A DNA stretch of 64,000 nucleotides from Podarcis cretensis (taxonomy: Eukaryota), in the NCBI GenBank assembly GCA_951804945.1, contig OX638155.1, positions 5,642,001 through 5,706,000 on the forward strand. The letters are read 5' to 3'. A model generated the notes under the pieces. The model was not told the origin of the DNA. It saw only the letters and a program-made list of their open reading frames with translations, and ran no database searches. The translations under genes were made by a program, and so were the position numbers. Positions 2,330-63,860 of this stretch are shown here, piece by piece; position 1 is the first letter of the stretch, and every line of letters begins with the position of its first letter.

Positions 2330-2558
2330 TACGGGATAAGGATAGAAATCAGGGGTCCATTCACTTTTCCTGTGATGCAACAATTACTGAGTTAAGTTCT
2401 GCAAATCTGAAGGAGCTGGAATTGAGGGACAACAATATAGCATCCTGCCAAAAATGGATCCCTCCCCGTTGAGACTGCATCACGGAATGATGCCTGCTCC
2501 TGACAACAACTTCTTGCAGCATGAAAGAAACTTGAAGACCCGAATCAGAAAAGAAAAG

Positions 2559-5000
2559 ATGCAAACAAAGCAGCCGAGGAAATGGCTGAAGATCACAGGA
2601 AGCAGGGAGCCACTCCGGCGGCAAGTACAGCTTTCCTTGTTATTCTCTTTGTTCTGCCTGACAATGTCGGAAGAGGTCTGGTATTCAATTCCTGAGGAAA
2701 GGGAGAAGGGTTCTCTTGTGGGAAATCTGGCCAAGGATTTGGGTCTGAGTAAGAGAGACCTGGTGAAGAGGAAGCTCCGTATTGTTTCTGCAGCTAATGC
2801 TCAGTTCTTTACTGTGAATGAGGAACATGGAGACTTCTATGTCAGAGACCAAATAGATCGAGAAGCAATCTGTGGGAAATCACCACGTTGTGTCCTTAAC
2901 TTTGAAACTGTGGTTGAAAACCCTCTAAATGTTTTTCATATAAGCATCACCATAGAGGATATTAATGATAATGCACCACAATTTTTAAAAGATGATATCA
3001 AGCTAGAAATAAGTGAATCTAGCTTGACTGGAGCCATATTCCCCCTTGCAAGTGCTGAAGATCCTGATGTTGGAATAAATTCTCTGCAAAATTACCAGCT
3101 GAGCAGTAATCAGTACTTCACCTTGGAAGTTAAAGAAAGTCCAGATGGAAATAAATACCCTATTTTAGTGCAAAGCAAACCTCTGGATCGGGAAAGTGAG
3201 CACAAACTCCATTTGATCCTTACAGGCCTGGATGGTGGAGAACCAAGAAAAACTGGAACAGCCCAGATATGGATTAATGTCACTGATGCCAATGACAACC
3301 CACCTGTTTTCACTGAGGAAGTCTATAAACTCAGCCTAAAAGAGAGTGCACCAAAAGGATTGTTAGTGATCCAGGTGAAAGCCTTTGATGCAGATGAAGG
3401 TCCTTATGCACAGATAAGATACAGTTTTAGCAATATCCCAGCTAAAACAAGCCAGAAATTCAGCCTGGATCCAGAAAGTGGAGCAATTTTAGTTAGGGAG
3501 ACTTTAGACTTTGAAGAATCCAGAAGCTATATGATGTTAGTGGAAGCCAAAGATGGTGGTGGACTACTGGCACATTGTAAAGTTGAGATTGAAGTTCTGG
3601 ATGAGAATGACAATGCTCCAGAGATTTTGCTAACATCTATGTTTAGTCCAGTTCCCGAAGACTCTCTACCAGGAACTGTGATAGCTTTGATCAATGTGGA
3701 TGATAGAGATGAAGGAGAAAATGGGAAGGTTACTTGCCACATACAATATAATTTGCCTTTTAAAATTCTTTCTTCATCTAACAGTTACTACAAGCTACTT
3801 ACAGAGAGCCCCCTAGACAGAGAAAAAGCCTCAGAGTACAACATCACAATCACGGCCATGGACAAAGGTAGCCCCCCTCTTTCCTCCAACAAAACCATCT
3901 CCCTGCAGATTTCAGATATCAATGACAACCCCCCTGCCTTTGAAAAATCAACTTATAGTGTCTTTGTGCCTGAAAACAATCCCTCAGGTGCCTCCATTTT
4001 TGCCATCAAAGCCTCGGACCCAGATCTGGACCGCAACTCATGTATCACTTACTCCATCCTCAACAGCAACATGGAGGAGCTGCCTCTCTCCTCTTACGTC
4101 TCCATCAACTCTGAGACGGGAACTATCTATGCACAGCGCTCCTTTGACTATGAGCAATTCAGGGAGTTTCAGATCCAAGTGAAGGCCCAAGATGGCGGCT
4201 CTCCCTCTCTCAGCAACAACGCCACCGTGTGGGTGTACATTTTGGATCAGAATGATAACAGTCCTCGCGTTCTGTATCCTGTCCCGGGTGTTGAGGGCTC
4301 TGCCTTGTTTGAGATGGTTCCTCACTCGGCAGAGCCAGGCTACCTAGTGACCAAAGTGGTGGCTGTGGACGCAGACTCTGGGCACAATGCCTGGCTCTCC
4401 TACCAAGTGCTGCAGGCCACGGAGCCGGCCCTCTTCACCATTGGGACCCACACAGGAGAGATCAGGACATCACGAGCCCTTCTGGAGAAAGATGCTGTGA
4501 AACAGAAGCTGGTCATCTTGGTGAAGGACAATGGGAAGGCTCCGCGCTCAGCTACTGTGGTCCTCAACCTCGTGGTTGCCGAGAACTTCCAAGAGGCACT
4601 TCCGGAAATGAGCAAACCAGCCATTGACTCTAAGTATCAGTCTGATATGAATGCCATTTTAGTTATAGCCTTGGCTTTGGTCTCATTCTTATTCCTTTTT
4701 ACAGTCTTAACAGTTTTAATACTTAAATGTCGGAGACAGAGAAGCCCAACAGTGCTTGGATCCTACAATACTGACTTGTACTCTAGCTTGGGCCACAAAT
4801 TTTCCTGCAATTACAATAATGGGACATTGACATTGCCCTATTCATATGAAGTGTGCTTAGCGTCTAAGGCAGACCGGAATGAGTTTGCCTTTCTGAAACC
4901 AAACCTCTCAGTGGCCACAGATGATCCCATTCTGAAGGACGATTCTGGAATTGGGAATGAATCTCTGGGTGAAAATCTCATCCCTGATAACAGTGTACAG
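2559..5000 (+). CDS. PCDHGB: Protocadherin gamma-B-like variable exon (signal, EC1-6, TM, variable cytoplasmic domain); splices to constant exons
   Basis: ORF 2454-5024. YSIPEE...[11 protein letters not shown], six cadherin repeats (DRE, DxNDNxP) and a hydrophobic TM. Gamma-B diagnostics: [40 protein letters not shown]. Phase-0 donor CAG|GTGAGA at 5000/5001. ATG 2559 chosen as it precedes the signal peptide. Confidence 0.93.
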
Positions 5001-16299: not shown

Positions 16300-17800
16300 G
16301 GAAGCTTACACCGCCTTGCGGGGCTTGCGGGTTCTCCCTGAGCAGTGCTGTGCATGGGGAGCACCGGGCTGCCCCACAGAGCCGCCACGCCGGGAGGGCG
16401 TAAGCGAGGGAGCCAGAGGCGGAGGCACCGCAGGCAGGCAGGCAGGCAGGCATCTCTCTCCCGATCCCTGGGAAGCGTCCGGGGTCCAGCCCTTCCTCCA
16501 CGCTCCCCAGCGAGAACAATGAGCCCTTGCTGCCTCCTTGGTCCGCGCTTCCCTTCGCCCCTTCTCGCGGCGGCAGAGCGGGGAGGGCTGTGCAGCCTAG
16601 CGGGCAGCCTCCACAAGCCTTTCACCGAGGAACACCCCCGCCCCCCCCCGAAAAAAGAAGTCCACCGGGCCCCGCCGGCCCAGCTTGGATGGAGCCGTGC
16701 GCCTCGTGCCTGGGAGTCCCGGCGGCGAGCCGGGGAGGCGGAGCGGGAGCGGCCTCTCCTGCAGTTAATGGTCGCGACTCTGCGCGCCGCTGTTGACCCG
16801 GCGATGCTGGCGGCGAAGCAGCGCGAAGTGGGACGCCGCCGCCGCCGCCGCGAGTTGAGCGCCAGCAACAGACGGAGCGCAGTCCCGCCGCCGGAGCGCC
16901 GCGCCGCCGAGCAATGCCCGACCCGCAAAGTCCGCGCGAGGCGAGCCTGGACCGGGCAGGGTCGCGGCCGCATGGAAGGGACGGCTGAAAACTTTTAGAG
17001 GGACCTCCCCGCCGCTGCCGCAAAAAGAAAGAAACTTTGCGAGGCCGGGAGATGAGAGGCGCCGCGGGAAGGAGCCGGCCGAGAGCGCGCTGGCTGCCCG
17101 TCGTGGGCTTCTGGCTGTGGCTGGGCGTCTCGGAGCGGGCGCTCGCCGCCACGCGCTACGCCATCCCCGAGGAGATGCCCAGGGGCTCTTCGGTGGGCAA
17201 CGTGGTGGGCGACCTGGGCCTGGATCTCGCCCAGCTGCCCGCGAGGAACCTCCGCGTGGTGTCGGGCGGCGGACGAAAGTACTTCGAGGTGGACCTGGGC
17301 AGCGGGAAGTTGCTGGTGAGCGAGCGCATCGACCGCGAGGAACTTTGCGGGGCCCTCTCGCCGTGCGCGCTGAGCCTGGAGGTGGTGGCCGAGAGCCCGC
17401 TGGTGCTGTACGGCGTGACCGTGGAGATCCAGGACGTCAACGACAACGACCCGGCTTTCCAGAGCAAGCAAATGAAGCTGGAGATCAGCGAGTCGGTGAC
17501 CCCCGGAGCGCGTTTCCCCTTGGAGAGCGCGCAGGACCCCGACGTGGGAAGCAACTCTCTGCAGACCTACCAGCTCAGCGCCAACCCGCACTTCGTGCTG
17601 GACGTGCAGACGCGAGGCGACGGGACGAAGTATGCGGAGCTGGTGCTGGAGAAAGAGCTGGACCGGGAGCAGCAGCGGGAAGTGCAGCTGGTTCTCACGG
17701 CGATGGATGGAGGGACCCCACCCCGATCGGCCAGCTTGCAGGTGCTGGTTGACGTCCTGGATGCAAATGACAACGCCCCTGTCTTCAACCAGTCCATCTA
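16300..17800. promoter_or_regulatory. CpG island over the gammaC3 promoter and 5' part of the exon
   Basis: Abrupt very high GC and CpG density, GC boxes, (CCG)n run at ~16835-16851. Confidence 0.85.
16756..16800 (+). promoter_or_regulatory. Pcdh CSE (CGCT box / CTCF site) of gammaC3
   Basis: CTCCTGCAGTT...GACTCTGCGCGCCGCTGTTGACC about 260 bp upstream of the ATG. Mammalian gammaC3 is the gamma C-type gene known to carry a CSE. Confidence 0.78.
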
Positions 17801-19496
17801 CAGAGCCAGCGTGAAAGAAGACACACCCTTGAACACCCTGGTTGTCCAAACCAGAGCTTTCGACCTGGATGAAGGCCCCAATGGGGAGATTGTGTACTCT
17901 TTCAGCAGTCACACCCCTGCCAGAGTCCGACAGCTCTTTGCCTTAGACTCTGCCACTGGAGAACTGAGGCTGAAGGGGTTGCTGGATTTTGAAGAAGCCA
18001 AATTTTATGAGATTTATATCCAGGCAAAAGATAAGGGTTCAAATCCTGGTGTCGCTCATTGCAAAGTGCTGGTAGAGATTGTGGATGTGAACGACAACAC
18101 CCCAGAAATAACAGTGACGTCAGTGTACAGCCCAATACCAGAAGACGCAGCTCCAGGGACTGTGATTGCGTTGCTGAGTGTCACGGATCAGGACTCTGGT
18201 GATAATGGCCTAGTAAATTGCTTTATACCTTCTGGGATCCCTTTTGCCCTCAGCTCTTCCCTTAAAAACTATTATACCTTACAGACCAAAGGACCCTTGG
18301 ACAGGGAACTTGTCTCTGAGTACAACATCACCATCACAGCTCAGGATGCAGGCACACCCTCACTCATGGCAGAAAAGCAAATACTGGTTAAAGTATCTGA
18401 TGTAAATGACAACCCTCCTAAATTTCCACAATCCTCCTATGATGTATATGTGGAGGAAAACAACCTTCCAGGGGCCCTGATCTTTAACATCAGTGCCTCT
18501 GACCCGGATCTGAACCGGAATTCCCACCTTTCCTACTCCATCCTGGATAGTCCCACGTCCTCGGGAGACTTGGCGGGCAGGTATTTTTCTATTAACCGGG
18601 AAAATGGCAGCATATATGTCCTAGTCCCCTTGGACCATGAGGGCACCATGGAGTTCAGGCTTGTGGTCCAGGTTCGTGATGCCGGCCTCCCGCCTCTCGC
18701 CACTAACATCACTGTCAATGTTTTTGTCACAGATCAGAATGACAATGCACCCAGGCTCTTATACCCAAACTCAAACAACAGTTCTTCACTCTCAGAAGTC
18801 ATCTCACCCACAGTCAGCCCTGGTTACATGGTCACAAAAATTGTGGCCTGGGATGCAGATTCTGGTTACAATGCCTGGCTCTCGTATTCCTTCCTTCAGG
18901 TCACTGACCCAGGGCTGTTCACTGTGGGGCTGCATTCTGGGGAGATAAGCACAGCTCGTTCTCTGCAAGAGGAAGATTCTCGCAAGCAAACATTGCTCAT
19001 CTTAATAAAAGACAATGGGGAGCCTGCCTTGTCCTCCACAGTGACCCTTGCTGTAGATGTAGCAGAGACATCTAGGGAGACACTGACAGACTTGACTGCT
19101 GTGTCCACTACACCCCAAACAAAGAAGCACTTGACTTTCTATTTAATCATTGCTGTCATCTTGATCTCAGTGGCCTTCTTTGTCACCGTGGTTGGGGTGG
19201 GGATTTATAAATTTTACAAGTGGAGGCAATCCAAGGATATATTCAAAGCCTCCAGAAGCTCCCTTTATAGAACCCCGGGGCCTTTCAACCACATAGACAC
19301 TGTGCGGAGTGGATTTACTCCTCCAAACTTCTACCAGCAGGTCCTCACCACGGACTCTCGCCAGAGTGAACTTCTGTACAAAATGCCCTTTGCTCCCAGC
19401 CCTATGGGGAGCCGCCAGAGCACTATCACAAGATGTGACCCTGCAATATATAACCAGCTAATAAGCACAAATAAGAGGCTTCTGGTGTCCTCTGAG
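17052..19496 (+). CDS. PCDHGC3: Protocadherin gamma-C3 variable exon
   Basis: C3-diagnostic segments: EIYIQAKDKGSNP..AHCKVLVE, SSSLKNYYTL, SYDVYVEENNLPGA, GRYFSINRENG, VAWDADSG, YKWRQSKD...SSLYRTPGP, LTTDSRQS, SRQSTITRCDP. Phase-0 donor GAG|GTAATG at 19496/19497. Confidence 0.95.
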
Positions 19497-27480: not shown

Positions 27481-29931
27481 ATGCTGTCTCTGGAAGAAAG
27501 ACTACTCCTGCCATGGCAAGTAAGAGCTTTGCTTTTGGTTTCTGTCTCTCTCCAGTGTGCTGGAGAGATGACCCAGCTCCGTTATTCAATTCCTGAGGAG
27601 TTAGCTCCTGGGGCCTTTGTTGGGGATGTGGCTAAAGACTTGGGTCTAGATGCTGCCCGGGTGGTCTCCCGACAGCTGCAGATCATGGCTGGCTCTGCTG
27701 AAAAGTACTTCAAAGCCAAGGTGCCAAATGGTGTCTTGGTCGTGAAAGAACGGCTGGACCGAGAGCAGCTTTGTGGGCCCAGCTTACACTGCCTGCTCTA
27801 TCTGGAGCTCCTACTTGCAAACCCAACAGCCTCCCATCGTGTGGAAGTTGAGCTCTTGGATGTGAATGACAACGACCCAGTTTTTCTTACCAGTCTCACC
27901 CATTTGGAGATAGCAGAGTCTGCAATGCCAGGGGCCCGCTTCCCCCTGGAAAGTGCTGAAGATTTGGACATTGGCATGAATTCAGTCAGCACCTACCAGC
28001 TGAGTCCACGTGGACAATTCAGCCTCAGTGTTAAGTCACATAAAGGCGGCAGCAAACCTGAGCTGGTGTTAGAGAAGGCACTGGATAGAGAACAACAGCA
28101 GCGCTACCCACTGGTGCTTACAGCCCTGGATGGAGGAGTTCCTGCTAAATCCGGGACAGCAAAGATTCTCGTGTCAGTCATAGACGCCAATGACAATCCA
28201 CCTGTCTTTAACCAGTCGGTGTACAAAGTTAGCCTTCTAGAAAATGCCCCAGTGGGGGCCCTTGTGATACATTTACAAGCTACAGACAACGATGAGGGGG
28301 CAAATGGGAAAGTTTCCTACTCCTTCAGCAGCCACACTCCACAGAAAATCCGGAAAATGTTCAGCCTTAATGAGGAGACTGGGGAGATAAGAGTACTGGG
28401 AAGTGTGGATTATGAAGATGACACATTGTATGAAATTGATGTGAGGGCCAAAGACCAAGGGTCACCTTCCATGGATGCACACTGCAACATCTTAGTGGAG
28501 GTAGTGGATGTGAATGACAATGAGCCTATCATTAGGTTCACTTCCCTCACCACCACCATACCAGAAGATGCTCCCCCAGGTACCACAGCAGGGCTCCTCA
28601 GAGTCAGTGATGCAGATTCTGGGGGAAATGGAGAAGTACAGCTTCATCTCCCTGCAGATGTCCCCTTCCAGATTGTACCTTCCTTTAAGAACCACTACTC
28701 TTTGATCACCAGTGGCCCCCTAGATCGGGAGGAAATCTCACAGTACAAAGTTATGATCACAGCTACGGATTCTGGTTCTCCACCTCTCTCCAGTCAAAGA
28801 AACTTCCTTATAAATATATCTGACCTGAACGATAACCCACCCCACTTCTCACAGCCTGCATATGAGACCCTCGTAACTGAGAACAATGCTCTGGGGCTGC
28901 CAATCATTTCTATATCTGCCTTTGACCCTGATCTGGGGCAGAACTCACACCTGTCTTATTCGTTAGTGGAGCATATCATAAATGGAATGCCCATTTCCTC
29001 CTATGTCTATGTTATGGAGAACGGTACTATCTACAGTGGCTGCTCATTTGACTATGAGCAAACCCAGCAACTGGTTTTCCAGATTCAAGCTAAGGATAAT
29101 GGTTCTCCTCCACTCTGTGCCAACGTGACTGTCTCCATCTTCATCATAGACCAGAATGATAATGCTCCTCTCGTTGTATACCCTGTAACCAAGAAGGGGG
29201 TCCTAGCCCAGCAGCCAGTCCCTTTTTCTGCACAAGGAGGTTACCTGGTAACCAAAGTCACAGCTGTGGATGCAGACTCTGGGCAGAATGCATGGGTTTC
29301 TTATAAGTTGCAACAAGCCACAGACCCAAGCCTTTTCCAAGTCTCGGCGTTCACAGGAGAGATCCGAACCGTCCGAGCCCTCCTGAAACAAGACGCCCCT
29401 TCCCAAGAGTTGGTTGTTGAGATCTTGGACAATGGGAAGCCACCTCTGTCTGCCACAGCCACTCTGATTCTTAATCTAGAGCATGAGCATGAGTTGGGCA
29501 CAGCAGACCTCAGAGAGTCCAGCATGGAACAAGAAGGGCTATCTCACCTGACCTTGCAACTCATTATTGCTCTAATCACAATCTCAGGACTTTCTGCTCT
29601 AGCCTTTGTGTTTTTAGCTATGAAGTGTCTTAAAAGATTGAAAGGAAGACACTCAGATGTGGGTTGGACCAGCGACCTGAAGGGTAGGAACTCTATTCCT
29701 GTGGGAGGACACTTTGACACGTTCTCAGTACGCTTGAGCCAGGAGGAAAAAATGGAATTCCCTACAGCCTTCATTGGGGGAGATGTTGTTTCTCCTTTTA
29801 CCCTCCTAAGGCCTGGCCAGACCCACTTTTCAGTAGGGAGGAATTTCAGGATAGCTACACCAGTCACTCAGCAGGATATCAACAGCACAGGCACACTTCT
29901 GGCCTGCAGCCTTTCCCAAGAGCCAAACGAG
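27481..29931 (+). CDS. PCDHGC4: Protocadherin gamma C-type variable exon, gammaC4-like (positional and partial sequence match)
   Basis: Six EC repeats and a TM, lying between C3 and C5. C4-like segments: FSSHTPQKIRKMFSL, SFDYEQTQQL, NAWVSY, DLRESS..EG.S.LTL. Phase-0 donor GAG|GTGAGG at 29931/29932. The CDS is secure; the symbol is tentative. Confidence 0.8.
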
Positions 29932-31459: not shown

Positions 31460-33910
31460 ATGGAGCCACATTTGTCCCGGCAACCCTCTTTCAAATGGCA
31501 AGTACTGGGTTTGTTTTTCCTGTTCAGCCGGGCGTTGGTTACAGGACAGATCCACTATTCCGTGGTGGAGGAATCGGAGCTGGGCACCGTGGTGGGAAAG
31601 GTGGCTCAGGACTTGGGCTTAACGGTGGCAGACCTTTCCCGTCGCAGGCTGAGGCTGGGCTCTGAGGAGAGCAAGAGGTACTTTGCAGTTAACTTGGCCA
31701 ACGGTGCTCTGATAGTGAATGAAAAGATAGACCGAGAGACCCTGTGTGGAGCAAGCTCGGGGTGCATTTTGCCAGTCCAAGTAGTCATAGAAAATCCCTT
31801 GGAGCTCTTTCACCTGGAGGTAGAGATCCTGGACTTAAATGACAATTCCCCCGGTTTCCTCACCCCCAAGCTTGTGCTGAGGATAGCAGAGTCTGCCGCC
31901 ACAGGGTCTCGCTTTCCACTGGAGAGCGCTCATGATGCGGACGTGGGGACCAATGCAGTCAGTGTCTACCGACTCAGCCCCAACCCCCACTTCTCACTTA
32001 ATGTAAAGAATGTGAACGATGGCAAGCTTTTACCTGAGCTGGTGCTAGAGCAACCTTTGGACCGAGAGCAACAATCGGAACACCAGCTCATCCTGACTGC
32101 CTGTGATGGGGGGGATCCTGTACTGTCAGGAACAGCTCTGATCACCATTGTGGTCCTGGATAATAATGATAATGAGCCTGCATTTGACCTTCCTTTGTAC
32201 AAAATAAGATTTTTGGAGAACATCCCTGTAGGCTCTTTGCTTTTCAGACTTAATGCAACTGACCCTGATGCAGGTTCTAATGGGGAAATACAGTATTCCT
32301 TTGGAATCCACACACCTGATTCCATCCAGAAGTTGTTTGGCTTGGATCCCCACACAGGTGAGATCCGTGTCCAAGGAGTTGTGGATTTCGAAGAATCTCA
32401 TTTTTATGAGCTTCATGTAAGGGCCAGGGACAAGGGCATTCCTCAAATGGAAGGCCATTGTGTAATCCAAATGGAAGTTGAAGATGAGAACGACCACCCC
32501 CCAGAGGTTCTCCTTACCTCTCTGGTAAACCCCGTGCCAGAAAACACCCCTTTAGAGACAGTGGTAGGGCTTTTCAATGTGCGAGACCAAGATTCAGGTG
32601 CCAATGGAAAGGTGAGCTTACAAATATCACCCAACTTGCCCTTTAAAATTAAATCTTTTGAAAACCACTATTCTTTGATTACCTCTGAGAAGCTGGATAG
32701 AGAAACAGTTTCTCGATACACTATCAAGTTGACGGCCCAAGATTCAGGGTCCCCACCTCTAACCACAGATGTCACCATCTTGCTGAACATTTCAGATGTT
32801 AATGACAATGCCCCGTACTTCTCTCAGCCCTTCTATAACTCCTTCTTGAAGGAGAACAATCCACCTGGCTCTCTCCTATGCACTGTGGCGGCCTCTGATC
32901 CTGACGAGGGGGACAATTCCCGGCTCACGTACTCAGTGGCAGGAAGCCCAATTCAAGATGCTCCAGTCTCTTCTTTCATTTACGTCAACCCAGACAATGG
33001 GAATGTCTATGCCCAGCACTCTTTTGACTATGAAATGCTGCAGGTGCTGCAAATCCCCATCATGGTGCATGATGCTGGGTCACCCCAACTGAGCTCCAGT
33101 GTCACTGTCTACCTCTTCATAATGGATCAGAATGATAACACGCCTGTTGTTTTGCACCCAGTGACTGGTCAGGAACTGTCTGCAATCCAGAGGATCCCTC
33201 AGTCTGCATCGGCAGGCTACGTGGTCACCAAAGTCACTGCCGTGGATGCAGACTCGGGCCACAATGCCTGGCTTTCTTACTCCTTGCTTTCCCAGTCTAC
33301 TGACCCCTCCTTGTTCCGAGTGGCTCCCTACACTGGGGAAATTTGGACTGTTCGGGAGTTCCAGGAAACAGATCTCCCGGCACAGAAAATCCTTGTACTA
33401 GTGAAGGACAATGGAGAACCACCTTTGTCTACCACCGTCACCATCGTGGTCTCATTGGAGGATAAAGTAACTGAGGAAAGGCCCCAGTCTCATGATTTCC
33501 TGACTCACCCTAAAGAAAAATCTGACCTGACCCTCTATCTGATTATTGCGCTGGTGGCAGTTAGCATTGTGTCCCTCGTTACGTTCATAATCCTGTCTGC
33601 AAAATGCTTTCGGAATAAAAAAGCCAGGGGTTCTTCTTGCTGCAGCCTGAGTGGTGCTCCTGCCAGGGATGTTTTCAAACAATCCAGCCCTAAGCTTCAA
33701 CTGAACTCAGATGGCACATTGAAATACATGGAGGTCACACTCAGGCCCACAGACTCCCAGAGCCAGTGCTATAGAGCCAGCTATTCTCCCGGCTCGGACA
33801 GAAGTGATTTCACCTTTATGAGGCCTGTGGATTACCCTCAACCAAGTACTCTGACGAGAGACTTTGACACTTTCTTATCTCGTACTGATACACTGAACCA
33901 TCACAGGCAG
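31460..33910 (+). CDS. PCDHGC5: Protocadherin gamma-C5 variable exon
   Basis: KWQVL signal, YSVVEESE.GT.VG.VAQDLGL, LCGASSGCILPVQVV, MEGHCVIQ, VVGLFNVRD, SDLTLYLI, KQSSPKLQLNSDGTLKYMEVTLRPTDSQSQCY all match mammalian gammaC5. Donor CAG|GTGAGG at 33910/33911. Confidence 0.95.
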
Positions 33911-35042: not shown

Positions 35043-37481
35043 ATGCTCAGAACAGAAAACTCTGCCTGGCGTTTGGGACTCGTGCATGCCTTTGCCTTCT
35101 GTCTGTTTCTGAGTGACTGTTTTGCACAGATCCGTTACTCTGTCCCAGAGGAACTCACTCGAGGAGCCTTTGTAGGAAATGTTGCTAAGGACTTAGGAAT
35201 GGATGTGACAAAGCTTGCAGCTGCCAATCTGCAGGTGCTTTCTGATTCTGACTCCCAGTATTTCTCTGTGAATGTGAACACTGGAATCATAATAGTCAAT
35301 GACAGAATAGACAGGGAGCAGCTCTGTGGGCAGAACCTGCGCTGTTTCTTGCATCTCAAACTTGCTATTGAAAACCCAGTGGAGTTCTATCGCATCGAAG
35401 TGGAGATTCTGGATATCAACGACAATGCGCCTGTGTTCTCAAGTAGCACAATATCTCTGCAGATCTATGAACTGGCTGCACTGGGTGCCCGTTTCCCCAT
35501 CCCACACGCACAGGATTCAGATGTAGGAACTAACACTTTACAGACCTACCACCTCAGCGCCAATGAGAACTTCAACCTCAACGTGAAGGCACGTACAGAT
35601 GGCACCAAATTCCCAGAGCTAGTACTGGAGAAACCCCTGGACAGGGAGCACATCGCTGTCCACCACTTGGTCCTGACAGCTGAAGATGGGGGCATATCAC
35701 CCAAATCTAGCGCTATTCGAATTGCTGTCCACATTCTGGATGCCAATGATAATCATCCGGTTTTTGACAAACCTACTTATTATACCCGCTTAGTAGAAAA
35801 CTCTCCTCCAGGAACTCTGGTGATTAAGCTGAACGCAACAGACTTGGATGAAGGGCCTAACGGAGAGGTGCAGTATTCCCTCAGCAGCCATAACTCAGAA
35901 GCCTTGCGCAGGATATTTGCTATCAATGAGACTACGGGAGAGATCCGTGTCCAAGGGAATCTGGATTTTGAAGAGGCTAATGTCTATGAGATCGAAGTGG
36001 AGGCTAAGGACATGGGCTCCCCTACTATGGAGGAACACTGCAGTGTTATGGTAGAAGTCACGGATGTCAACGACAATGCACCTGAAGTTATTCTCACCTC
36101 TTTCTCCAGCTCTATGGGTGAAGATGCGCCTCCTGGCACTGTGGTTGCTGTGATACATGTCAAGGATAGAGACTCTGGGGATCAAGGGAAAGTCCGGTGT
36201 GATCTGCCCAGAAACCTTCCTTTCAAACTTCGGAAAGACTTTGAGCACCAGTATTCCTTGCTCACCAGTGAGCAGCTAGATCGTGAGAGCACTCCGCAAT
36301 ACAACGTCACCATCTATGCCTTTGACTTGGGGAATCCACCTCTTTCTGAGCACACCTCTTTCTCCATAACTCTGGCAGATGTCAATGACAACCCACCTCA
36401 TTTTGACAGGCCATTTTATGAAGCCGTCATAGAAGAGAACAATCCAGTGGGGGTGGTACTGCTTAGAGTTTCTGCAACAGATTCTGATAAGGACCAGAAC
36501 TCCCGTTTGTCTTATTCTGTTTTGGCGAGCCCAGGGCAAGGATTGATTGAGGACCTCACCTCTTATGTCTCCATCAACCCAACAAATGGAGATGTCTTTG
36601 CAGAGAGCCCTTTTGATTACGAGCATACAAATCATTTTCAGTTCCTGGTGGAGGCATGTGATGGTGGCTCCCCTCCTCTCTGCAGCAGAATCATGGTGCA
36701 CATCTACCTCCTAGATCAGAATGACAATGCACCCTGGATTCGATTCCCCTTTACTGGGAAAGATTCTGTTGTACAGTTCAGAATTCCACGATCTACTGCA
36801 GCCAATGCCTTAATCACAAAAATTATGGCAGTGGACTTGGACTCTGGGCGAAATGCTTGGCTCTCTTACCATGTAGAGCAAGCCACAGACCCTGGTATTT
36901 TCAGCATGGCCCTCCGTAGCGGGGAGGTGAGGACTACACGAGCATTACAGGACATAGACAATCCTACCCAGGACCTTGTCCTGGTTGTCAAAGACTCAGG
37001 TGATCCTTCCTTGTCCACCTCAGTCACTGTGATGGTGCTCTTGGAGGAGAGCAGCCCTGAAACCTTTCTGGGGTTAACAGCTCACTCAGTGGAAACTGAG
37101 GGACCTCCCACATTGACTGTGTACCTTATCATCTCCTTGGCAGCAATTTCCACCATCTCGCTGATGGCTTTGGTGGCCTTGGGAGTCCGATGCCTCCGCC
37201 GTGATTCACGTGCAACATCTACCATCTTTGGATGCTGTGGAAGCAAAGCTGGTGGGCTTCAAGATGCTTCAGATCACGTGATGGGACATTGCCATTATCA
37301 GCTGAGCCCTGGAGATGCCATGATAGGAGTGCAAGTGGCCACTTCTGGACCCCCTGCCCGCGGATACAGATCCTGCTTTTCTCCTGTCTCAGACATTAGC
37401 GAATTTGTATTCATGAAACCTAATCTGACACTTAGGACAGCCTCTTGCAGCAATCTCACTGAACCCAGCTTCTTTGGCAAG
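35043..37481 (+). CDS. Additional protocadherin gamma C-type variable exon (extra 1, downstream of gammaC5)
   Basis: Intact 813-codon frame: signal (..FAFCLFLSDCFA|QIRYSVPEE), six EC repeats, TM, and VCD motif YRSCFSPVSDISEFVFMKP. Phase-0 donor AAG|GTGAGA at 37481/37482. Confidence 0.93.
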
Positions 37482-37849
37482 GTGAGAATTTTCCATGTAG
37501 TGTCCCTATTTTGTTCCAGCCATGGCGCCACCTTCCTTTTCTTTTGAGTTTCCCTGCACCTAGGAGAAGTGCCTGGGGTGGGGAGGAGGAATCAGTGCGT
37601 GGTTTCAAGCATAGGCTGTGATACATTGCACCTATCTGCTCCAAAGCTTTGTGTGCCTAATTTTCCTCTCTTTCTTTATGAGCGGGGGGGGGGGGAGGGG
37701 GGAGGGGATTGAAGTGAAGAGGTTGCAGGAGGGTAGAGTAGCCCCCTCCCCCCTCCTGGAGTTACAGCTGCCGTCAGCAGCTCGCCCTGTCTGCGTTCTG
37801 CACCTTCGATTCCTGCTTTTCCACCAAAGGGGCATCAAGGGAGCTCTTC

Positions 37850-38870
37850 TGGCCAATGGCTCCCTTGGGTCAGCCCTCCCAATCTCTCTGCTGCGCTGGG
37901 AAAGGAATGGGAAGCGCAGGGAGGGAAAACTGGTGGCAAGAGAGATTGGGGAGGGGGGAGCAGCAGGGTGTGTGTGCGTTTCGGGGAAGGGGCTTCTCTG
38001 CTGCTGCTGCCGCCGCCGCCGCCGCCGAGGAGGGAATTGCCGCTTGTCTGTATCCATTTCACAGCCCCATTTCTCTGCTGCTCCTTTTGCCAATGAGCTG
38101 CTGCTGATCCGAGCGCTTTAAAATCCCCCCGCTCCCCCCTCCCGCCTCTCCAGCTGCAGCCCGCGCCTTTCCGCTGCACAGCACCTCTCAGGTCACCCCG
38201 GAGCCGCCAGGAGCAGACCTGGGGGGCGGGGCGGGGGGCACCGGACTGCGGCGGGGTCCGGAGGCAGCAGCGGCCACCCCCGGGCTGGATACCTGGAGCA
38301 GAGGCAGCCGCTGGAGACGGCCATCCTTGCGCGCAAAGGAGCCAGGCATGGGCGGCGGGCAGAGCTGGTCGTGGCAGCTGCTGGCGCTGGTGGCTGCCGT
38401 CTTGTCCCTGCCAGGGCTCATCCCCGCGCAGATTCGCTACTCCATCCCAGAGGACCGGGACCCAGGCTCTTCCGTGGGGAACGTGGCCAAGGACCTAGGC
38501 GTGGACGTGCGGAGCTTGTCCGCTCGCCGCCTGCAGCTGGTCAGCGACGGGATGCGCCACTACTTCCATGTCAACCTCGCCGACGGCATGTTGCTGGTCC
38601 ACGAGAGGCTGGACCGCGAAGCTCTGTGCAGCTCCAGCCCCACGTGCTCCTTCCCTCTCCAGCTGGTGCTGGAGAACCCCCTGCAGCTCCACCGGGTGGA
38701 GGTGGAGATCCTGGACGTGAACGACAACGCCCCCAAGTTCCCGAAGGACAGGGTTTCCCTGGAAATCACCGAGGTGGCCAACCCGGGCACCCGCTTGCGC
38801 CTGGAAGCCGCCGAAGACCCGGACACGGGCTCCAACTCCATCGCCACCTATGAGCTTAGCCCAAGCGAAC
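37850..38870. promoter_or_regulatory. CpG-island promoter of extra C-type exon 2
   Basis: High GC and CpG, four CCAAT/ATTGG boxes (37853, 37879, 37945, 38090), GC boxes ~38221-38239, (CTG)4(CCG)6 at 37998-38027. Confidence 0.75.
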
Positions 38871-40783
38871 ATTTTGCCTTGAGCATTAACGTCAGGGGGG
38901 ACGGGGTCAAAATGCCCGAAATTGTGCTGGAGAAGCTTCTAGACAGGGAAAAAGCCGCTGTCCATCACTTAGTCCTGACAGCCCTGGATAGTGGGAATCC
39001 TGTTCAGTCTGGGACTGCCCAGGTGACAGTCCACGTCCTGGATGCAAATGACAACCCCCCTGTGTGTGACCCGCCAGTGTCCAAAGTTTATTTGGAGGAA
39101 AATGTCCAGGTGGGGACTGTCGTAACTAAGCTCAATGTTACGGACTTAGATGAAGGTCCTAATGGAGAGATGGAGTATTTCCTCAAAGCCAGCAATAGCG
39201 CACCTCTGAAGCTCCTTGACTTATTTAGCTTGGATCCCCAGACAGGGGAGATCAGGACCAAAGCTTTGCTGGACTACGAAGAAGCCAATGCTTACGAGAT
39301 AGCTATCTACATAAAAGACAAGGGGTCCCCTGCCATGGAGGGTCACTGCAACATCAGAGTGGAACTTGTTGATGTCAATGACAACCGCCCAGAGATTATG
39401 CTGACCTCCCTCTCTAGCCCAGTGCAAGAAGATGCACCCACAGGAACAGTCATTGCCCTGATCCAAGCAAAGGACAACGACTCTGAGGAAAATGGGCAAG
39501 TCCACTTGGAGATTACCAGGCACATCCCATTCAAACTGGTGTCTTCCTTTAAGGGACATTATTCACTGGTGACCAATGGGCCCCTGGACCGAGAGAAGGC
39601 TGCTAGATATAATATCACAATTAAAGCAACAGATTCTGGAATGCCTCCAAAATCCACCCACAAAAACATATTTATTCAAGTCTCAGATGTCAATGACAAT
39701 GCACCCACTTTCTCCATCCCTTCATACACTGCCCATGTGGAGGAAAATACTTCCCCTGGGACTCTAGTTTTTTCTCTGTCAGCCTCAGATCCGGATGCAG
39801 GTGTCAACTCCAAGCTGTCTTATTCCATTGTGGACAATGGAAATCATGGCTTACCCATTTCGACCTATTTCCACATCAACCAAGAGAATGGCAGCATTTA
39901 CACATCCAGGATGCTTGACTATGAGCAAGAGAAAGTCTTTCAAGTTGCCGTGGAGGTGAAGGATTCGGGTTTCCCACCCCTGAGCAGCACAGCCACTCTT
40001 CACTTGTTTGTTGTGGACCAGAACGACAACGCCCCGGTGATTGTGCACCCGCAAGTCTCCAAGGGCTCTGCCTTTCACCAGCCAGTTCTGCTCCCGGTGG
40101 AACCTGGATTCCTGGTGACCAAAGTGGTGGCTGTGGATGCTGACAGTGGCCACAATGCTTGGCTGTCCTATAGTTTGCTTCAGGATGCCAATGAAGCCAC
40201 CCCGTTCAAAGTGGAACGCCACTCAGGAGAGATCCGGGCTGTTCGGGCATTGAGGGAGCCTGGGGTGTCCCACAGGTTGGTGATAGAAGTAAGAGACAAT
40301 GGAGTGCCGTCTCTCTCAGCCTCTCTGGTTCTTGTGATTTCCTCAGAGGATAATGCTGTGCAGGACTTTTCCAAGTCCTTGGACCTTCTCCCCAAATCAC
40401 CTTCCAGAGCCCCCAGCCTAACTCTCTACCTTATCATCTCTCTTGTGGCCATCTCTCTGGTCTCTTGCGTAATGTTGGTTATTGTGGGGGCCAGGTGCTT
40501 CAGATCTGGCCTCTGTGTCCCCAGCTGGTTCATGTCACACTGCTGTAGTAAGAGGACAGACAGGAAATCCACCATAAATTTCACTGGGCGCCCACATCCC
40601 GAAGGCTTTATCAGATACCTTGAAGTGGGCGGAGCTGGAGCTCAGCACTACAAGTCTTGTCTCTCTCCAATGTCTGAACAGGGCGAATTCTTTTTTGTTA
40701 AACCTTTCAGTCATTCCACTACAGCAGAAAGCATGCTTGCCTTTGAGCAGGCAGGCAGTGTTTTGCAGAGTCCCTCTGATGGG
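38348..40783 (+). CDS. Additional protocadherin gamma C-type variable exon (extra 2, last variable exon before the constant region)
   Basis: Intact 812-codon frame: signal WQLLALVAAVLSLPGLIPA|QIRYSIPED, six EC repeats, TM, and VCD motif YKSCLSPMSEQGEFFFVKP. Phase-0 donor GGG|GTAAGA at 40783/40784. Confidence 0.93.
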
Positions 40784-43700
40784 GTAAGACACACTAAAGT
40801 GATTCTTAAAACATTTCTGCTTGCAATCCATAAATCCATATTTATCTACCATATTTATCTACCATAGACTTCCATCTGCTAGGTGTAAAGAGGTAAATGA
40901 GGTGTGTATGCCTGTGTGTGTGTGTGTGTGTTGTGGAGGGTGACATCCCGGGGTTCCTTCATTTTGCAGCTATTATGCTTTTTACAAGGTGCATGTAGGG
41001 CTTTCATTTCTTTCCATGCTACACTCTCTCCAACTGCCTCCCCCCCCCCAGGATGTTCTATGGTAAATTGGGGTGAGAGGAGAATGCATGTGCAGTGGTT
41101 GCTCTTGACTGGGACTTCTGGGAATATGATTAAAGGGTGGTATAAAAATATTATAATAAAACAAATATATAGGGTGATAATCCAACACATGCATCCCATC
41201 CATGCAAGGATTTCTGCTTGTGAAATGGGGTCTGCCCCCTTCCCTCCCCCATTCTTCCTCTCCACATGCTCCACAAACTCTCCCCAAATCTGCTCCAGAG
41301 AGTTGAGGAACCTCCAGACAGAGTTAGGTGGTGCACAGCGAGTGGGACGGGGGGGGGGGGAGGCAAGAGGCAAGGGGAGTCCTGTTGTGCAAGAGGAAAC
41401 CCATGTGCTGATGGGATGCTTAGGTAGCCCTAAGCTGGACATAAGGTCAGGTGGATCCACAGTCCTGTTTGGGTTGCTACAGTTGCTTGTCAGTTAGGCT
41501 TTTTAAAACCCAGTAGAATTATTATTATGCCACCCGTGTGCACAGCACTTTACAGAGTAAAGAAAAGCACAACCCATGGCCCTTCCACAAGAAGCTCTCG
41601 ACCTAAATGTAGTCAGAGAAAAGGGGGAGGCAAGTTTAGCGAAGGATGAATGAAAGCAGATGCAGCTACAAATGAGCTCTGCTCCAGACCTTCTCTACAT
41701 GTGCAGCAAACATTTGGGGAAGAAGCCAGATCTGAACAGACTTTGACTCCACTCTCATCTCAGCTGGAGAGGGAAGCCAGAGGTTTAAACCAAAGGCTTT
41801 ATGGAAGAAGTTAGTTCTGAGCAGAGGTTCAAAGGAAGAGACTGAAATGGGACCACATGGGTGTATATGTTGAGGCATCTTTAGCTGCATGGTTTTGCAC
41901 ATATGTGCTTAATGGATCCTTTAGCAAAAGAGACTGTGATGGTGATGATGGTGAGAGGATATGGGTCAAAAGGTGAGGGTTGCTGGATTCATTTTAAAAA
42001 GTACTCCCTACTCACCTCACTGCTACCATTATCAGAGTTCTGTAAAACTGTCAGGCAAATCCAGATCTATCACCATCTTAAGGTAATATTGTGGAAAAAC
42101 TGTGAAGCTGCTGATGTTACTTTGCCATTTTGAGCATGTTTTAATTTTGACATGTTGCGCCGGGGGTCTTTGCCCCAAAAGCAGCCTGCAAGTGTTTGAA
42201 ACAAGTATGTCCTATAAATACATGATTCTGTGACATCACAGTTACACTTAAGCAGCACCTTAGGGAAAACTTCTTATGACCATTCACTGGGAAGTTCTCC
42301 TGTGCAAGTCCCGTTGAAGTGAATGTGCATTTCAGAAGCGTACAGGAAGGCATCATCAAGCCCTTTCTATATGAGTGACAGGAGCTAGGAGTGAATGCAA
42401 ATGAGACGGTATATTTTTAACTGAATTACTTGGATGTGTTATAATGTGAGCAAGAATACATTTTAAAATATAAATTAAAAAAAAAATAACATATTTTTAA
42501 AAATGAAAAATCCCCATTGGGTTAACACAAGGGACAGGAAGCAGTGAGCCCTTGGTGAAAGGGGCAGGCTCAGCTTATTTAAGAAAAAGCAACAACACAA
42601 AATTTACATTTCAGTAATTTTAACAAACTGTTCTTACTTCATTTTTGCTTCTTTCCTGCTTCTAAATTTTGCTGGCACTATGAAGATACTATGTGCAGAA
42701 AGAATGCAGTATTTTGCAACACATGACACTCTGTTTTGCAATCCTTATCGTACACAGCTTTCACATTCCAGCTTTTGCCACCTCGTAAAGAAATATAGCT
42801 GAAATTTGAGCTTTTTGAGACTTGGGGACAGGAACTTAACCATTTTAGGAATGTCTAAATCCACATTTAGAAACTTAAATAAACAGGTGCCATTTTCTAA
42901 ACTTCAGAAAAACCACAGGTTGTGTGTGAGGGTTTTTTTAATTCAGTGTGTGCTGAAGATGCTCAAAATATATTTAAAGAACTGCCTGTATTTAGGTGTT
43001 TAAATTTAGGATTTAAGGTTTGATTATTGTAGCCTCTGGCTCTGCAAATTATAGAAGCAACTGAGGAAGTAAGTGTTCACAATGAATAACTCAAAGGAGG
43101 AGGCTTGTTTCTTCATATTTAGTCTGCAGAGAAATATAATACATGCTATCTACTGTTATATATGATAATTTTACACATACACATACATAAATAGATTTAT
43201 GAACTTGTTTAACTGACACCAGTAGTATATTTTAATCCTTTTGCGTTCACAGATCAATAATCAGAAAAGCTGGAATCCTCCTATTGTAGTAGGACACATT
43301 GTCTCAACCCTAGCTATGTCTACTCAGAAATGAGTCCTATTGAATTTAATTGGGCTTACTCTCAGGCAAGTGGGGTTTGGATTGCAGGCATATAGTTTTT
43401 TATTTGCAGGGTTCTTGGAGTCCAGATTCACCTGAATCAATTCTAATTTTGACATTGATTTAATAAGATGTCGATTACACCTTGTATCCTGATCTTAAAA
43501 CATGTTTATCCATTTTGTTAAGGACACATAAACAACAGTTTGGGTGCAAATCTCTCTAATGGTGTGGAGTATTATTACTGAAGGATTAATGGAGGAGACT
43601 GACAGGATATCTGGAGTTTTGCAGCATGCATCAACCACAGTGTGTCTTTCAGCTGTGATCACAAAGAGCCATTCAGACATGCTGCTCATAGTGGCATTTT

Positions 43701-44309
43701 ATGTACTCCTTTATTTACAAAATGTCCATTGTTCTAATAATACAACAATGTGGGTGGAAAGTAATACATGGCTCAGTCTATTCTGATATAGTGTCTTCTG
43801 TTGCGCCTTCAAATAAATCATTATTGTTGTGGGAAATGGAATTTTTAATCTCAGTGGGCGAAAAAGATTGCAAAGCTCCAAAGATCAAAGGAAACAGAAG
43901 ACATTAAATCAAAGCCCTAACACTGACCTGTTTCAGAAAAGATTATAAATTAGGAAATTCTATTAGCATTTCAGATGTTGGTATTCTCTCAGTACCAATT
44001 AATTCTGGTCTTCTCCCCCCCCCAAAAAAAAAAAAAAAAATTCCTGATGTTCTGGTGTTCTCTGGTTTAAATGATGCCCCTTCAAGCTTATTTCATGCTT
44101 CATTTATTCATGGATAGTTTGACTGTCTTATCTTCTGCAAGATTATTTAGATTACTTTCTTATCATGTTAACCAATCACGCTTCTTTAGAAGTATTTTGG
44201 AACATATAATGGTGTTCTCTGCTTGTGTGTGCATGTGTGTGTATATTTTATAGCTGAGCTTCATTTTAGGAATAGAAGCATTAAACCTCTCTTTGTGTTT
44301 CTCTTGCAG

Positions 44310-44368
44310 CAAGCACAACCTAACACAGACTGGCGTTTCTCTCAGGCCCAGAGACCAGGAACCAGTGG
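44310..44368 (+). CDS. PCDHG: Protocadherin gamma constant exon 1
   Basis: Polypyrimidine tract then CAG|CAA GCA CAA CCT AAC ACA GAC TGG... = [20 protein letters not shown]. 59 bp; donor GG|GTGAGT. Confidence 0.97.
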
Positions 44369-54679: not shown

Positions 54680-54768
54680 GTCTCAGAATGGGGATGAGAA
54701 TGGGACTTGGCCAAACAACCAGTTTGATACAGAAATGCTTCAAGCCATGATTCTTGCATCAGCAAATG
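54680..54768 (+). CDS. PCDHG: Protocadherin gamma constant exon 2
   Basis: TAG|G TCT CAG AAT GGG... = [29 protein letters not shown]. 89 bp; donor G|GTCAGT. Phases are compatible with exons 1 and 3. Confidence 0.97.
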
Positions 54769-63300: not shown

Positions 63301-63603
63301 CTTCCTCTCCACTCGGATCCTCTGGGCTTCAGGGGAAAGCAGGGATTTATTTTTGCCGGACTGCAGGATGCCACTTCTTCAAACCAGAGCTCTCTGCCTT
63401 GTGCGCATGCCAAAGAGCTTGCTGTTCATAAGAATTCTGGGGGTGGGGAGGTCGGCTGAGTGCATCTTCCCTAGATGATGTGTAGTCAAGACCCTAAAAT
63501 TATACATTGACATCTAGCAACGACTATGCTAAGAATTCGCCCTTCTGACTTTTCTCCCCCTTCCAATCTCCTTCTCTCAATCCCCCTCCCTGTGGTGGTG
63601 TAG

Positions 63604-63860
63604 AAGCCGCTGCCGCCGCCGCTGCAAATCCTGATGGAAATTCTACTCTGGGAGGAGGAGCAACAGCAGCAGGCACAATGGGCCTCAGCACCAGGTATGG
63701 CCCCCAGTTCACCCTGCAGCACGTCCCTGACTACAGACAGAACGTGTACATCCCTGGCAGCACAGCCACTCTCTCCAATTCTGCCGCCAAGCGGGATGGG
63801 AAACCTGCAGCCTCCGGAGGTGGAAACAAGAAGAAGTCAGGGAAGAAGGAGAAGAAGTAA
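63604..63860 (+). CDS. PCDHG: Protocadherin gamma constant exon 3 (coding part, to stop)
   Basis: TAG|AA GCC... gives [53 protein letters not shown]...KRDGK...[11 protein letters not shown], the hallmark Pcdh-gamma C-terminus. Confidence 0.97.

Follow-up and report, generated by a model that had tools for sequence, protein, structure and literature searches.

Here, we provide evidence from sequence comparison, phylogeny and spliced contigs that the gamma-protocadherin cluster of the lizard Podarcis cretensis carries two intact variable exons downstream of its gamma-C5 ortholog, and that these are the counterparts of gamma-c6 and gamma-c7 of the anole lizard. They lie in a stretch of 64,000 nucleotides (hereafter the window; GenBank assembly GCA_951804945.1, contig OX638155.1, positions 5,642,001 to 5,706,000, forward strand), which holds the 3' end of the cluster with six long plus-strand frames in the open-frame reading. 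We are highly confident in the reading as a whole, i.e., that the two exons match anole gamma-c6 and gamma-c7, that splicing joins c7, and likely c6 as well, to the gamma constant exon they share, and that both are likely ancient C-type lineages lost in mammals, with predicted self-binding recognition proteins as products. The original prediction, made from the letters alone, is confirmed as a real and correctly described observation that was already known. Its own suspicion that such genes might be catalogued elsewhere was justified, as the available excerpt of Jiang et al. 2009 (PMC2764143) names anole gamma-c6 and gamma-c7 and proposes the same loss model. Both the two-exon observation and the inference of ancient lineages and loss have therefore been in print since 2009; Jiang et al. 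alone turned up in literature searches on the c6 and c7 names. The features that carry the reading are as follows.

35043 to 37481, plus strand: gamma-c6 variable exon, 813 codons, with signal, extracellular cadherin domains 1 to 6 (EC1-6), transmembrane segment, variable tail and phase-0 donor

38348 to 40783, plus strand: gamma-c7 variable exon, 812 codons, with phase-0 donor; splicing seen in a contig of run X1; one copy returned by the genome search

37848 to 38347, plus strand: GC-rich region upstream of gamma-c7, likely promoter and 5' untranslated region; GC 0.67, CpG observed/expected 0.57

44310 to 44368, plus strand: gamma constant exon 1; acceptor and donor read in the sequence, tblastn

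54681 to 54767 (approximate edges), plus strand: gamma constant exon 2; tblastn

63603 to 63857 (approximate edges), plus strand: gamma constant exon 3, coding part; tblastn

The open frames extend from 35043 to 37547 (c6) and from 38348 to 40867 (c7), and each contains an in-frame donor, AAG/GTGAGA after 37481 in c6 and GGG/GTAAGA after 40783 in c7. Both exons have the layout of a gamma-protocadherin variable exon, a single large exon whose encoded protein begins with a hydrophobic N-terminus and has six cadherin domains (one matching Pfam Cadherin_2, the others as five Cadherin stretches), five linkers of the form DxNDN, a single transmembrane segment at about residue 695 and a tail of the Cadherin_C_2 type, the last scoring 30.4 bits in c7, slightly below the cut-off of 31.5. 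Identity is 45.4% between the two, 43.5-43.6% to the gamma-C5 ortholog (exon 31460; further exons are likewise named by their first position) and 41.5-45.4% when they are compared with all four remaining exons of the window. This divergence, together with their separate clades in the tree, bears out the proposal that they are not recent tandem copies. A genome search with EC1-3 of c7 found one copy, the closest paralogs being 53% identical (123 of 437 candidates scored). The promoter-like region that had been claimed for each exon, a point only weakly checked, is apparent as GC-rich DNA upstream of c7 but not upstream of c6 (GC 0.45, CpG observed/expected 0.32).

Sequence identity, position in the tree and gene order all give one-to-one orthology with the anole genes. 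DAA06629.1, 'protocadherin gamma c6 isoform' of Anolis carolinensis, shares 89.1% identity with the first exon, and the anole 'gamma c7 isoform' DAA06630.1 shares 90.9% with the second; Podarcis models match the two exons at 99.5-99.7% and Zootoca models at about 99%, which marks the window as lacertid DNA.

None of the sequencing runs that match the window is recorded as RNA, and contigs were judged by their splice junctions. In run X1, whose assembled contigs differ from the window by about 1%, a contig of 2,297 bases covers 38516-40783 and continues with 29 letters that match the start of constant exon 1, so that c7 is spliced in frame to the shared gamma constant exon. A second X1 contig (1,084 bases) covers 36426-37481, departs from the genomic sequence precisely at the c6 donor and carries another 28 letters. 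The junctions 37481 to 44310 and 40783 to 44310 had been named as a check, and the second was thereby seen directly. Constant-exon letters also follow 33910 (X1) and 29931 (X8). In four lacertid RefSeq models residue 813 of c6 is joined to the constant region, and in one lacertid and one agamid model c7 is joined at the position of the donor used here. Splicing of c6 to the shared constant exon is likely. The differences listed for c6 in X1 (five of six synonymous) are too few for a dN/dS estimate.

The c7 exon contains a second donor-like site.

40289 to 40294, plus strand: donor-like site GAA/GTAAGA inside EC6 of c7, in frame, after residue 647; RefSeq models

It is conceivable that lizard c7 mainly yields an anchor-less form through this site, which would act as a secreted decoy. 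In RefSeq models of six lizard species (P0206-P0209, P0211, P0212), c7 residue 647/648 is joined to the constant region, giving products of 780-781 residues without a transmembrane segment; among the 124 GT sites of the exon it has the third-best score, and both Podarcis RefSeq entries in the 15-member c7 cluster are of this form only. However, the X1 contig crosses 40288 unbroken and splices at 40783, so that the form without anchor is not dominant in X1. All anchor-less forms are computed models whose product would have a broken EC6, and three other c7 models are cut elsewhere, at 631, 630 and 626, one of them at a poor donor. A c7 form spliced at 40288 was not seen in the matched runs, where no loose end at 40288 occurs among the rows listed, and literature listings revealed nothing relevant on a secreted c7 splice form at the level of titles. 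We regard a mainly secreted c7 as highly improbable and consider it unlikely that c7 makes a conserved secreted form in addition to the anchored one. Two further models, P0205 (Anolis) and P0214 (Pogona), comprise 237 residues that start in the c7 membrane segment and use the normal donor; they represent either an internal start or 5'-incomplete models.

The c6 and c7 genes are not confined to lizards. Homolog searches considered annotated proteins only and listed the best 120 of about 7,980 scored candidates each. Ortholog-level matches to c7 included an agamid (92%), a gecko (87%), a monitor (85%), a snake (84%) and a tortoise (73%) and, beyond squamates and turtles, a crocodile (71%), birds (67-72%) and a caecilian (59%). 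For c6 they comprised an anole (89%), a gecko (85%), a monitor (83%) and a sea turtle (82%, partial length), followed by a gharial (68%), birds (66-71%) and salamanders (60-61%). A large share of the bird entries at around 60% reach similar scores with two exons of the window and have the look of fused models; one such entry, P0036, entered the tree by EC1-3 only and falls with C5.

The EC1-3 tree comprises 73 segments, 13 of 86 having been dropped as duplicate, fused or long-branch; a first fast tree of all 86 gave the same clades. The c6 clade (support 100/100) unites gecko, agamid, anole, monitor, sea turtle, gharial, two birds and three salamander sequences, and the c7 clade (99.2/99) unites squamates, tortoise, crocodile, birds and caecilian. 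The latter is sister to six lungfish segments (99.2/100), which are tandem exons of a single Protopterus annectens model, P0304, and represent a lungfish expansion of a C-type lineage. C5 forms a separate clade with frog and teleost sequences (teleost inclusion 95/99), and exon 27481 another with squamates and turtles. The two exons and exons 27481 and 31460 form a group with L001 and L002, two exons of the same genome that lie upstream, at 95.8/93; the nodes below this one are weak. In lying at the 3' end of the variable array and in grouping separately from the alternate types (A, B, alpha and beta), c6 and c7 are C-types. A tree had also been proposed as a check, and neither exon nests inside the C5 clade or with exon 27481. 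An origin as reptile-lineage duplicates of C5 or of exon 27481 could draw on the sister relation between the C5 clade and c7 with its lungfish relatives (97.1/99). It is contradicted by the tree itself, as amphibian orthologs of both c6 and c7 and the teleosts inside the C5 clade imply that the splits predate reptiles, and identity to paralogs is only 43-45%; such an origin is extremely improbable.

No mammalian ortholog at ortholog level occurs among the best 120 for either exon; the c7 list has three mammalian entries, at 40-42% identity, and the c6 list has 13, at 36-45%. Because amphibian orthologs are present while mammalian ones are absent, c6 and c7 appear, from sequence comparison, to be ancient C-type lineages likely lost in mammals. 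The original wording, retained in squamates and lost in mammals, was thus apt as to age and loss but too narrow, since turtles, crocodilians, birds and amphibians have the genes as well. Literature searches on platypus and opossum clusters found nothing relevant.

Several points weigh against this reading of splicing and loss. The 28 letters beyond the c6 donor in the X1 contig were not identified as constant exon 1, and an X8 contig continues past 37481 as intron sequence. Two runs of raw reads, X20 and X22, matched 66 and 46 reads, mostly partial, and are uninformative on level or tissue. The tree was built without mammalian C-types or coelacanth gamma C-types, so that the case for loss rests on absence from the database, gene order and the tree of Jiang et al., and with respect to the database only about 7,980 candidates were scored per search and 120 listed.

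Assignment to mouse C-types, as judged by scores against PDB chains, involves the three C-type exons upstream of c6.

17052 to 19496, plus strand: gamma-C3 ortholog; 433.5 bits to 4ZI8 (Pcdhgc3); W562 and S595 as in mouse gamma-C3; CpG island upstream

27481 to 29931, plus strand: second C-type exon at the position of anole gamma-c4, without ortholog-level match to mouse gamma-C4; spliced contig in X8

31460 to 33910, plus strand: gamma-C5 ortholog; mouse-chain scores, spliced contigs

Exon 31460 scores 458 bits on 4ZPO, which is mouse gamma-C5 EC1-3 (name from the available excerpt of PMC8901172), compared with 314-342 bits for the other four C-types, confirming that two intact exons follow a gamma-C5 ortholog. 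The C3 and C5 pairs reach about 1.4 bits per residue, and c6 and c7 show no ortholog-level similarity to mouse C4 or C5 (about 1.0). On mouse gamma-C4 EC1-4 all five lizard C-types score 438-470 bits, about 1.0-1.1 per residue; exon 27481, in the C4 position, is not the best of the five (462.5 bits), and c6 (441.5) and c7 (438.3) are the lowest, the others reaching 462-470. By these scores only C3 and C5 clearly match mouse C-types and none of the lizard exons is a clear counterpart of mouse gamma-C4, in agreement with Jiang et al. Five C-types were counted, as originally predicted, but they are not the mammalian three plus two, as the second is no clear gamma-C4 ortholog. Close matches to exon 27481 among the 120 listed, a list crowded by fused models, are squamates (82-99%) and turtles (74-76%); birds and crocodilians do not occur among these close matches.

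One might propose that c7 (or c6) does have a mammalian ortholog, namely gamma-C4, which evolved fast and changed its place, and that only one of the two lineages was lost. The c7 clade profile is slightly ahead on mouse gamma-C4 EC1-4 (525 bits, compared with 508 for c6 and 504 for the exon-27481 clade), a gap that is small, between profiles of differing depth that are not strictly comparable, and that gives no resolution. The single-sequence scores of c6 and c7 are the lowest of five, and mammalian C4 lies 5' of C5, whereas c6 and c7 lie 3' of it. We judge such a relocation very unlikely and retain the loss of both lineages.

In the proposed mechanism, an own upstream promoter would drive each of c6 and c7, and either exon would be joined in frame to the three constant exons. 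The predicted product comprises six cadherin domains and a membrane anchor, then a unique short tail followed by the shared tail. EC1-4 is the trans-binding part of clustered protocadherins and would serve as such in c6 and c7. By analogy with the mouse proteins, c6 and c7 may each bind only identical partners on other cells and pair laterally with different isoforms by way of EC5-6; both features are taken from mouse work (available excerpts of PMC8901172 and PMC7811963). Two extra recognition specificities are on this analogy a reasonable prediction. At the cis-interface, L555, K558, V562, A570 and R595 are kept in both exons and the alpha-type R560 is absent, position 560 being V in c7 and M in c6. 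All 14 c7 orthologs in which the motif was found (of 15) have V560, and the corresponding 14 c6 orthologs (of 18) have V (7), M (5), I (1) or T (1). Since these residues are kept and R560 is absent, we weakly predict that c6 and c7 reach the surface without a carrier. As for mouse C-types, expression would likely be set by cell type and not by random choice.

Beyond the 2009 description, our analysis adds little, namely that the genes extend to turtles, crocodilians, birds and amphibians, that c7 splicing is seen directly and that the gamma-C4 question is more sharply posed, and it repeats the anole result in a second lizard family. Gamma-C4 is the sole isoform of the gamma group that is required for neuronal survival in mice (2019, PMC6957209), and despite this role the lizard has no clear C4 and three C-types without clear mammalian orthologs. 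As gamma-C4 has no clear lizard counterpart, the survival role in reptiles and birds may sit with c6 or c7, a tentative and rather improbable proposal; that either this or the conserved secreted c7 form holds is somewhat less doubtful, yet still far from expected. Because birds carry c6 and c7 orthologs, chick embryos could show which C-type holds the survival role outside mammals.

Elsewhere in the window, tblastn found no cadherin exon in the 12 kb between the last alternate exon and C3 and no further one from 40867 to constant exon 1 (44310). GC-rich upstream DNA occurs among the five C-types only at C3 (16550-17550, GC 0.72) and c7 (37850-38850, GC 0.67), and a search for CGCT boxes upstream of the exons did not separate C-types from alternate exons. 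Two features precede C3.

2454 to 5000: last alternate exon, B-like in the tree, 12 kb to C3

268 to 1746: protocadherin variable exon in decay, interrupted by many stops; lies upstream of the last B-like exon

Among known systems, Xenopus tropicalis has 23 C-type-like isoforms, pcdh-gamma2 14-36, a relation taken from the available excerpt of PMC4978886 and not from our tree. The coelacanth likewise has five gamma C-types, Lm gamma 20-24, among which Lm gamma 24 is listed as orthologous to c7, again according to the paper (Jiang et al., available excerpt); they are absent from our tree. Mouse and human gamma C3, C4 and C5 share exon size, domain layout, three constant exons and the 3' cluster position with the lizard C-types, but only C3 and C5 are matched at ortholog level in the lizard, c6 and c7 lack mammalian orthologs and gamma-C4 lacks a clear lizard one. 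The closest system is that of the anole, for which the available excerpt of Jiang et al. describes five gamma C-types (c3-c7), c3 and c5 as human orthologs and c4, c6 and c7 without human orthologs, with brain RT-PCR confirming splicing of 'selected' variable exons, and concludes that the group was shaped by differential loss. The anole belongs to another lizard family, and its c7 record (P0217) meets the constant region nine codons 3' of the donor spliced here; the tail of that 2009 record may be mis-predicted. In position, order, the count of five gamma C-types and clade membership, anole gamma-c6 and gamma-c7 are the same as the two exons described here.

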